Assembly (NCBI RefSeq): GCF_003334405.1
Contig: NZ_QOWM01000001.1
Length of the DNA: 64,000 nt
Origin: Escherichia coli
GTDB taxonomy: Bacteria > Pseudomonadota > Gammaproteobacteria > Enterobacterales > Enterobacteriaceae
Direction: 5' to 3' (one strand)
The notes beneath the pieces are model-generated. The model was not told where the DNA came from and made no database searches. It saw only the letters and a list, made by a program, of their open reading frames with translations. The translations under genes were made by a program, and so were the position numbers. Below are positions 7,350-9,395 of this stretch, one piece after another. The number at the start of each line of letters is the position of its first letter. Within the stretch, counting starts at the first letter, position 1.

Positions 7350-7377
7350 CCCCCTCATGATGAGGGGGCTTTTTTTA
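7350..7377 (+). terminator. Rho-independent terminator after yehA
   Basis: Hairpin ccccctca-tga-tgaggggg followed by seven T; the T-run overlaps the rcnB stop codon on the opposite strand. Confidence 0.75.
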
Positions 7378-7713
7378 GCGATGATAAAAAATCTCACCGT
7401 CGTAGGCTTTAATGATTTTACCGTCGGTGTCGCTGATCAACACGTACGCGCCACCCATATAGGTCCAGTGCGTCCCGGCATCAGGCGCGGGCAGGTTACG
7501 CAACTGCCACTGCTTAATGTTGTACTCATCGGTACGGTACATTTCTGGTACGGTGTCCCCTGGTTTGAAATGCTTAAAGTCAGCAATGAAACTACTTAAC
7601 TCATACTTAGAAATTCCCGAGGTATTGGTCGAACCCGCGGTGGCTGGTGCGGCCCAGGCGGCACTGGTAACCAGCAAAAGCGCACCCAGTAACATCTTAT
7701 TTTTAATGGTCAT
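7375..7713 (-). CDS. rcnB: periplasmic protein RcnB (nickel/cobalt homeostasis)
   Basis: ORF 7375..7938 but product matches RcnB from internal Met (MTIKNKMLLGALLLVTSAAWA..., 112 aa); signal peptide. Confidence 0.88.
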   Translation of the reverse strand: MTIKNKMLLGALLLVTSAAWAAPATAGSTNTSGISKYELSSFIADFKHFKPGDTVPEMYRTDEYNIKQWQLRNLPAPDAGTHWTYMGGAYVLISDTDGKIIKAYDGEIFYHR

Positions 7714-7934: not shown

Positions 7935-8780
7935 TCACATTATGCCCATGAAGCCATGTACGCCCATATACACACCGACTAAGCCAATCAACAGACTGGA
8001 AAAATAGGGGGCGCGTTTAGCGAGAGTGTTAAATCCGCTCCAGCGTTTTGCGACCTGCTGAACGCTGATTGCTGCGCCAACGCCTACGGTGACAAGCGTA
8101 AACGCCAGGCCAATGCTGAAACTGACGACCAGTGTTGCGCCCAGTGTCAGGGCTTTCAACTGAATGCATATCAATAGCACGGTAATTGCTGCCGGGCAGG
8201 GGATAAGGCCACCGGTTAAGCCAAATAACAAAATTTGCCAGTTGGTGACCTCTCTACCATCAAAGCGTCGTTTAATGTCATTGGCATGGGCTCGTGCATG
8301 GGCATCCTGATACTCGCCATGTTCGTGATGGTGATGATGTCCATGGTCGTGGTGATGTTCGTGGTCTTGATGATGTTCGTGATCGTGATGATGGTGATGA
8401 TGCTCATAATCATACTCGTGCATATTCTCCAGCCAGTTGCGTTCGCCGCGCCAGGTACGCCAGAACATCCAGAACGCGGTGCCAATAATGATCACTGCGG
8501 AAATCAGCTGGAGCCACGGTTCTGCTGATTGAGCAGTAAAGCGCTTGCTGATCACCATCCCGCCAAAGGCAATTAACCAGACCACTGCGGTATGCGAAAT
8601 AGTTGCTGCCAGTCCGAGCATCACCGCTTGTTTAATGGTGCCTTTGATGGCGATGATAAACGCCGCCATCATCGTTTTTGAGTGCCCTGGTTCCAGGCCA
8701 TGAAGCGCACCAAGTAAGATGGCGCTGGGGATGAAGAACCAGGCGTTTCCTTGCTGAAGAAGAGTTGTAAATTCGGTCAT
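7935..8780 (-). CDS. rcnA: nickel/cobalt efflux transporter RcnA with His-rich loop
   Basis: 281 aa; MTEFTTLLQQGNAWFFIPSAILLGALHGLEPGHSK...; central loop HEYDYEHHHHHHDHEHHQDHEHHHDHGHHHHHEHGE. Confidence 0.95.
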   Translation of the reverse strand: MTEFTTLLQQGNAWFFIPSAILLGALHGLEPGHSKTMMAAFIIAIKGTIKQAVMLGLAATISHTAVVWLIAFGGMVISKRFTAQSAEPWLQLISAVIIIGTAFWMFWRTWRGERNWLENMHEYDYEHHHHHHDHEHHQDHEHHHDHGHHHHHEHGEYQDAHARAHANDIKRRFDGREVTNWQILLFGLTGGLIPCPAAITVLLICIQLKALTLGATLVVSFSIGLAFTLVTVGVGAAISVQQVAKRWSGFNTLAKRAPYFSSLLIGLVGVYMGVHGFMGIM

Positions 8781-8817
8781 GATAATAATTCTTAGTATTA
8801 ATTCGGCAATCTGATTC

Positions 8818-8852
8818 TACTCCCCCCCAGTACCTGATACTACCCCCCAGTA
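8818..8852. promoter_or_regulatory. tandem RcnR operator sites (TACT-C/G tract-AGTA) in the rcnA/rcnR divergent promoter
   Basis: tactcccccccagta at 8818..8832 and tactaccccccagta at 8838..8852; matches the known RcnR recognition pattern TACT-G6-N-AGTA. Confidence 0.8.
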
Positions 8853-8900
8853 GATTAATAGTGCTATGATTTTTCATATTCTTGTTAACCAGGTGTTGCC

Positions 8901-9173
8901 ATGTCTCATACAATCCGTGATAAACAGAAACTGAAAGCGCGTGCCAGTAAGATTCAGGGCCAGGTCGTGGCGCTCAAGAAAATGCTCGACGAGCCGCACG
9001 AATGCGCTGCAGTTTTACAACAGATTGCTGCTATCCGTGGCGCGGTAAACGGTCTGATGCGGGAAGTGATTAAAGGTCATCTGACGGAACACATCGTTCA
9101 CCAGGGGGATGAGCTAAAACGTGAAGAAGATCTGGATGTCGTTCTGAAGGTGCTGGATTCATATATCAAATAA
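8901..9173 (+). CDS. rcnR: Ni/Co-responsive repressor RcnR (CsoR/RcnR family)
   Basis: 90 aa [22 protein letters not shown]...; divergent from rcnA. Confidence 0.95.
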
Positions 9174-9254: not shown

Positions 9255-9395
9255 ATCATCGCAACCAAACGACTCGGGGTGCCCTTCTGCGTGAAGGCTG
9301 AGAAATACCCGTATCACCTGATCTGGATAATGCCAGCGTAGGGAAGTCACGGACCACCAGGTCATTGCTTCTTCACGTTATGGCAGGAGCAAACT
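9255..9395 (+). promoter_or_regulatory. TPP (THI-box) riboswitch in the thiM leader
   Basis: cgactcggggtgcccttctgcgtgaaggctgagaaatacccgtatcacctgatctggataatgccagcgtagggaagtc matches the thiM thiamine-pyrophosphate aptamer; ends at the thiM start codon. Confidence 0.9.

Follow-up and report, generated by a model that had tools for sequence, protein, structure and literature searches.

Two 15-bp C-rich elements lie in tandem between the divergent rcnA and rcnR genes in the Escherichia coli window (the whole stretch of 64,000 nucleotides that was analysed), and very probably they would constitute the shared operator of the rcnA(-rcnB) and rcnR promoters of this species. The argument for an operator is built on the identity of both DNA and protein with E. 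coli K-12; binding, stoichiometry, release by metal and DNA wrapping are taken from the literature, and the promoter geometry is deduced from conservation. Judged by its sequence, the feature is an already known one, letter for letter the K-12 operator, and the sequence-only reading that pointed it out was right but ordinary. As regards the window, the strain carries a standard Ni/Co efflux switch, which can be annotated with confidence and has little further import. Only the comparative material is new, namely the site-specific identity of the N position, the alleles differing in run length, and the variants with one, three or extra sites, and its interest is modest.

Two tandem elements with the sequence of the RcnR operator

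The rcnA-rcnR intergenic stretch extends from 8781 to 8900: the minus-strand ATG of rcnA occupies positions up to 8780, and the plus-strand ATG of rcnR begins at 8901. The open reading frames leave exactly the 120 bp that the sequence-only reading had counted between divergent start codons. Direct reading of the sequence and a pattern search both place site 1, TACTCCCCCCCAGTA, at 8818-8832 and site 2, TACTACCCCCCAGTA, at 8838-8852, where they had been proposed to lie. Their local context is ...GATTC TACTCCCCCCCAGTA CCTGA TACTACCCCCCAGTA GATTAAT..., and 37 bp are left beside the pair toward rcnA and 48 bp toward rcnR (Table 1). Other parts of the earlier description need rewording. Both elements had been written as TACT-(C)6-7-AGTA, which suits site 1 but not site 2, where an A precedes the six C (TACT-A-C6-AGTA), both elements being 15 bp long; the distance of 20 bp given for them is correct from start to start but not as a gap, which measures 5 bp (8833-8837); and the pair is centred only roughly, since its own centre falls at 8835 and the intergenic midpoint at 8840.5, a displacement of 5.5 bp toward rcnA.

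Table 1. Coordinates of the operator, the predicted promoter elements and the neighbouring genes in the window
Feature	Position	Strand	Description
Probable RcnR site 1, rcnA-proximal	8818..8832		TACT-C-CCCCCC-AGTA; opposite strand TACT-G6-G-AGTA; N = G/C; run C7
Probable RcnR site 2, rcnR-proximal	8838..8852		TACT-A-CCCCCC-AGTA; opposite strand TACT-G6-T-AGTA; N = T/A
Spacer CCTGA between sites	8833..8837		5 bp; 20 bp centre to centre, about two helical turns
Outer imperfect inverted repeat	8806..8864		Arms 8806-8821 and 8849-8864, 75% complementary; dyad at 8835; both sites inside
Predicted rcnA -10, TAGAAT	8814..8819	-	Shares the first two bases of site 1
Candidate rcnR -10, TAGATT	8851..8856	+	Mirror of the rcnA hexamer; shares the last two bases of site 2
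Alternative or second candidate rcnR element, extended -10 TGCTATGAT	8862..8870	+	
rcnR	8901..9173	+	90-aa Ni(II)/Co(II)-sensing repressor, CsoR/RcnR family; NCBIfam NF011613 equivalog, 197 bits (cut-off 138)
rcnA	7935..8780	-	Ni/Co efflux transporter, 281 aa; NCBIfam NF007454, 563 bits (cut-off 195); K-12 annotation at equivalent position
rcnB	7375..7713	-	Accessory subunit, downstream of rcnA; position equals the K-12 rcnB annotation
TPP riboswitch	9265-9361	+	Between rcnR and thiM; Rfam RF00059, 71.2 bits; annotated likewise in K-12

Both elements are exact matches to TACTNCCCCCCAGTA, and they are the sole ones in the 64 kb even when up to two mismatches are allowed; in the output of a repeat finder they form a direct repeat of 15 nt, with 93% identity and a start-to-start distance of 20 nt. 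It could be argued that such a repeat has arisen by chance, or that it is a structural RNA or DNA feature (a hairpin, a terminator or a leader) with no operator role, given that the TACT/AGTA arms are self-complementary and that the pair is contained in a larger imperfect palindrome. Against the 0.12 matches expected from shuffled sequence for a window of this length, however, there are two that are exact and adjacent, and just one out of 100 shuffles reached that number. The fold of the 120 nt is not outstanding either (z = -1.18, with 27 of the 200 shuffles folding as well or better), no terminator-like site was found in the intergenic region, and a search of Rfam found no family there, its sole match being the thiM TPP riboswitch. 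The match statistics, the fold test and the Rfam search, together with the cross-species conservation described below, effectively refute chance or structure as an explanation, and we give it practically no credence.

The RcnR protein encoded in the window carries the metal-site residues His3, Cys35, His60 and His64, as read from its translation, and this H-C-H-H pattern is the mark of RcnR according to a 2024 review (PMC11672702). The same review remarks on the "lack of a structure"; likewise, we found no solved structure of an RcnR-DNA complex, the closest solved chains being those of FrmR and InrS. The product of rcnB had no match in the NCBIfam search. Expression of RcnAB is under RcnR regulation (PMC7055735), and the co-transcription of rcnA and rcnB is taken from the literature. 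RcnA has 281 residues here versus 274 in K-12: the His-rich loop (about 8367-8390) contains an 8-residue insertion, HHDHEHHQ, with two substitutions (EY for GH) close to it, and the C-terminus (7935-7940) lacks the final Arg. The annotated length of rcnA in other E. coli strains ranges from 810 to 852 nt.

A comparison with the K-12 operator, which the sequence-only reading had suggested as a check, revealed no difference, the intergenic DNA being identical to that of K-12 MG1655 at 120 out of 120 positions and RcnR being identical over all of its 90 residues. The gene order yehA-rcnB-rcnA / rcnR-thiM-thiD-yegX is also common to the window and K-12. Differences from K-12 are found in the RcnA loop and in the surrounding 6.1 kb, which are 98.3% identical; at that level of identity about 1.6 differences would be expected in 120 bp (an estimate), so that their absence is not significant when taken alone. 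The K-12 rcnA-rcnR tandem RcnR operator was reportedly described by Iwig & Chivers in 2009 (J Mol Biol 393:514) and by Blaha et al. in 2011 (Biochimie 93:434). Three papers (PMC7055735, PMC3902906 and PMC5146963, all citing Iwig & Chivers 2009) describe apo-RcnR as occupying two TACT-G6-N-AGTA sites in this region with a single tetramer on each, and refer to footprinting for contact at the TACT/AGTA repeats. One of them (PMC3902906) classes the sites as a tandem type 1 operator and ascribes A-form character to the unbroken G/C tract. Moreover, RcnR has been reported to repress both itself and rcnA (PMC6338753).

The elements of the window have this very sequence, with its 4-bp inverted repeat and unbroken G/C run, in two tandem copies between divergent rcnA and rcnR genes. 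The nature of the flanking genes, the identity of DNA and RcnR with those of K-12, and the published motif bear out the proposal that the paired elements are RcnR operators. Contact at the TACT/AGTA repeats on identical DNA, as cited there, is also the opposite of the lack of protection that the sequence-only reading had named as the outcome contrary to its proposal. On the other hand, the seven C of site 1 against the six C of site 2, regarded in that reading as something that could alter repressor affinity or DNA wrapping, do not amount to a variant. The contrast is real, but the additional C equals the N of the published motif, and the C7/C6 contrast is the reference state rather than a peculiarity of the strain, because K-12 has the same two sites.

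Operators of other members of the family share some of these characteristics. The E. coli FrmR operator in Pfrm resembles the one discussed here in its tandem G/C tracts, its 4-bp AT-rich inverted repeat and its recognition by tetramers of the CsoR/RcnR family, but it has ATAC/GTAT arms and 9-bp GC-rich tracts, and its effector is formaldehyde instead of a metal (PMC5146963). Type 2 operators of CsoR, for instance that of Streptomyces lividans, have in common with it an A-form G/C tract, a GTA dyad and a regulator of the same fold family, and differ in their interrupted G/C tract, in the distance of about 11 bp between the repeats, and in the binding of two tetramers per site rather than one (PMC3902906). 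The sites might thus be regarded as operators of FrmR, of another family member or of an unrelated protein, being merely similar to those of RcnR. FrmR is indeed the closest relative of RcnR, which scores 76 bits against the FrmR model, and provides the nearest solved structure, and tandem type 1 sites are used by FrmR too (PMC5146963). This assignment is nevertheless hardly credible: the 9-bp GC tracts with ATAC/GTAT of FrmR are located in Pfrm (PMC5146963), the elements in the window are exact TACT-G6-N-AGTA sequences, and a homologue of rcnR, of rcnA or of both adjoins the sites at every one of the 77 loci from species-level genomes for which flanks are available.

The operator of the Salmonella enterica rcnR-rcnA pair (rcnRAPro; Osman et al. 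2016, PMC5016687) is like that of the window in having two sites in 35 bp, which bind two tetramers and are released by Ni or Co. Two tetramers of Salmonella RcnR bound a 35-bp two-site probe with a K_DNA of 1.5e-7 M; in the presence of Ni(II) the value rose to 5.9e-6 M or more, and in the presence of Co(II) to 1.5e-5 M or more (PMC5016687). At the locus of S. enterica subsp. diarizonae the same two 15-bp cores are separated by a 5-bp spacer; the spacer there reads TGTAA where the window has CCTGA, the flanks are different too, and the two RcnR proteins share 94% identity.

Predicted promoters and a model of repression

Conservation of sequence at the edges of the operator points to the position of the promoters. 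Among the 59 loci with a 5-bp spacer that were compared, a minus-strand TAnnnT is present at the position of the predicted rcnA -10 hexamer in all 59, which would imply an rcnA start near 8807 and a leader of about 27 nt. The rcnA ATG, for its part, keeps a fixed distance of 35-42 bp to site 1. The situation is less uniform on the rcnR side, where a plus-strand TAnnnT is found at the equivalent of 8851-8856 in 36 of the 59 loci, with TAGAAT or TATAAT in many species, and at the offset of TGCTATGAT in 40 of them. An rcnR start near either 8863 or 8877 is predicted from these two candidates; in the case of TGCTATGAT the -35 position (8842-8847) would fall within the C-run of site 2. The flanks of the operator are also conserved, as gATtC ahead of site 1 and GAa past site 2, which form the outer arms of the imperfect palindrome centred on the spacer. 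Ahead of site 1 the most frequent bases across loci are A at -4 (100%), T at -3 (85%) and C at -1 (80%), and past site 2 they are G at +1 (79%), A at +2 (93%), T at +10 (85%) and G at +11 (68%).

A scan for consensus promoters returned two weak candidates that do not include the proposed ones, which it would have missed because their -35 hexamers are poor, a property that fits the report of PrcnA as a weak promoter (PMC7105576). One of them, TTAACC/TACAAT (8885-8914, plus strand), runs into the rcnR start codon, and transcription from the other, TTGCCG/TATTAT (8809-8782, minus strand), would begin inside rcnA. Neither was adopted, and the conserved hexamers at the operator edges appear to be a better fit than either.

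According to the model that emerges from these predictions and from the literature, in the absence of surplus Ni(II) or Co(II) each 15-bp TACT-G6-N-AGTA site would be occupied by one apo-RcnR tetramer, which would recognise the TACT/AGTA inverted repeat together with the unusual shape, resembling A-form DNA, that the literature describes for the G/C run. The 35-bp pair of sites would be situated between two outward-facing -10-like hexamers, and RcnR, once bound, would cover the spacer and the -35 regions of both promoters and keep RNA polymerase off; such an arrangement, with the operator filling these regions of both predicted promoters, would agree with occlusion by a shared operator. The occupation of His3, Cys35, His60 and His64 by Ni(II) or Co(II) would make DNA binding 40- to 100-fold or more weaker, and from the released operator rcnA-rcnB would be transcribed, with the result that metal would be pumped out, and rcnR would be derepressed too.

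A further block in the intergenic region, located by the rcnA start (8781-8799), is fairly conserved across species; its minus-strand sequence is AGAATnATTCT, and in Citrobacter it is perfectly palindromic. The window has GATAATAATTCTTAGTATT in this place, which resembles a Fur box by eye (13 of 19 positions); a search of the 64-kb window for the 19-bp Fur consensus, with up to three mismatches allowed, gave no match. The block could be the site of a second regulator or a ribosome-binding region.

Conservation of the operator across species

A scan in which each species was represented by a single genome, for two TACTNCCCCCCAGTA cores separated by 2-10 bp (perfect cores required, the N of either site left free), matched 77 species-level genomes; the frequency of imperfect sites lies outside this perfect-core set. 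The matches belong to the Enterobacterales (Escherichia, Citrobacter, Salmonella, Enterobacter, Klebsiella, Raoultella, Kosakonia, Rahnella, Erwinia, Tatumella, Hafnia, Serratia, Cedecea and Buttiauxella, among others) and also to Vibrio, Shewanella and Chromobacterium. Wherever the flanks reach, the left-hand neighbour is an rcnA homologue on the minus strand, whose start lies 32-42 bp from site 1, and the right-hand neighbour is an rcnR homologue on the plus strand, 80-134 bp away as measured from where site 1 begins, with RcnR identity down to 58% among the loci with tandem sites.

In the perfect-core set, the N of site 1 (8822 in the window) is C in all except one of the 77 loci and the N of site 2 (8842) is A in every one. 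The spacer, on the other hand, comprises 37 distinct sequences, with a length of 5 bp at 61 of the loci and of 6 bp at the remaining 16; its first four positions vary freely, and the last base is A in all 61 of the 5-bp spacers. Since N is near-invariant while the spacer varies, a site-specific N seems to be under constraint within the perfect-core set, and its conservation suggests that the asymmetry between the two sites is not neutral.

A third site-like element is present a few bases past site 2 in some loci of Enterobacter, Klebsiella, Lelliottia and Kosakonia. It is found in inverted orientation, as TACTC(A/C)GGGGGAGTA, in 13 loci (Enterobacter, Klebsiella, Lelliottia), and in the same orientation, as ACTCCCCCCCAGT, in five, mostly from Kosakonia; the rcnR start is 98-134 bp away in the loci with a third element versus 81-88 bp. 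Pairs of rcnR and rcnA whose RcnR is 92% identical were also observed, in a spread sample, on large plasmids of Klebsiella, Enterobacter, Citrobacter and Salmonella. The IncHI2 plasmid pKOX100_1, with an RcnR of that same identity, has both cores and the spacer AAATA in otherwise different flanks, and its rcnR-rcnA pair adjoins pcoS and encodes a longer RcnA (1,116 nt). On a Ralstonia megaplasmid (62% identical) there is only one site, TACTCCCCCCTAGTA, in which the N lies at the other end of the run.

Run-length and site-number variants within E. coli

Of 5,426 complete E. coli genomes, 5,362 contain the 120-bp stretch, and in 5,039 of those its identity is 99% or higher. With a 62-bp query that includes both sites (8814-8875), exact matches were obtained in 4,816 of 5,342 genomes, about 90%. 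Among these 5,342 genomes, exact matches to versions with an altered run showed that at site 1 (8822-8828) about 126 have a C6 run and about 105 a C8 run, and that at site 2 (8843-8848) 28 have C5 and 29 have C7. Several O111 strains and two of O157:H7 (EC4115 and SS17) are among the best 40 of the approximately 126 C6 matches, and several O121:H19 strains are among the best 40 of the approximately 105 C8 matches. The strain names among the matches listed suggest that at least some of the run-length variants are inherited alleles. Part of them are likely to be sequencing errors, because some length variants come from assemblies in which rcnA is frameshifted or, in one, has an internal stop.

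These numbers bear on the possibility that the C-runs are slippage-prone contingency tracts, in which changes of length would switch rcnA or rcnR through promoter spacing, repressor binding being secondary. The run lengths do vary at both sites, the longer run is about four times more variable, as slippage predicts, and the run of site 1 falls in the spacer of the predicted rcnA promoter. We consider this possibility very unlikely, however. About 90% of the genomes carry the exact reference 62 bp, and C6 and C8 appear to be bound to lineages, as judged by strain name among the best 40 matches, unlike the flicker of a switch; frequent and reversible changes of length within lineages, which define a phase-variable locus, were not what we found. 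Runs of six or seven are also short for phase variation, and the frameshifted or stopped rcnA of some variants suggests homopolymer sequencing errors. Furthermore, the 15-bp form of both sites has been kept in 77 species, and binding of RcnR is documented.

The substitutions seen affect the spacer (8833, 8834 and 8836) or a position just outside site 1 (G8813T), and no substitution in the TACT/AGTA arms was found among the E. coli variants examined. Three out of four substitution variants obtained with a 76-bp query carry G8813T, and the fourth carries C8833T; position 8813 lies 5 bp beyond the edge of site 1 and immediately follows the predicted rcnA -10.

A further proposal concerns the N position; we advance it tentatively and regard it as doubtful on balance. 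N would perhaps not be free, site 1 being held to C7 and site 2 to A-C6, as the cores would double as spacer and -35 DNA of two back-to-back promoters, or the two tetramers would need unlike affinities, or both. Natural alleles with a C6 or a C8 run (which, judged by strain name, include several O111 strains for C6 and several O121:H19 strains for C8) and the rare one- and three-site alleles would then shift the set-point of Ni/Co efflux between E. coli lineages. The conserved asymmetry and the natural alleles of run length and site number may be of interest for work on metal sensors and for RcnR-based cobalt/nickel biosensors, and the C6/C7/C8 and one-, two- and three-site alleles could be used as ready-made variants relating operator geometry to induction threshold.

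Some rearrangements of the region were observed in single strains. In strain WW2, from wastewater sludge, a 23-bp tandem duplication (within positions 301-443 of the WW2 locus) results in three RcnR sites, and in strain 97_3250 a 20-bp deletion has merged the two sites into one. In strain ETEC4085 the place of the rcnA start is taken by a gene for an IS5-family transposase, whose end lies 8 bp inside the intergenic region; rcnA is missing at that position, and the operator and rcnR are intact. Finally, CP137936.1, an E. coli sequence of 365 kb designated "plasmid unnamed1" and typed as non-mobilizable, contains the whole yehA-rcnB-rcnA-rcnR-thiM-thiD-yegX block, with an RcnR that is 100% identical, and may be either a misassigned piece of chromosome or a large chromosomal capture.
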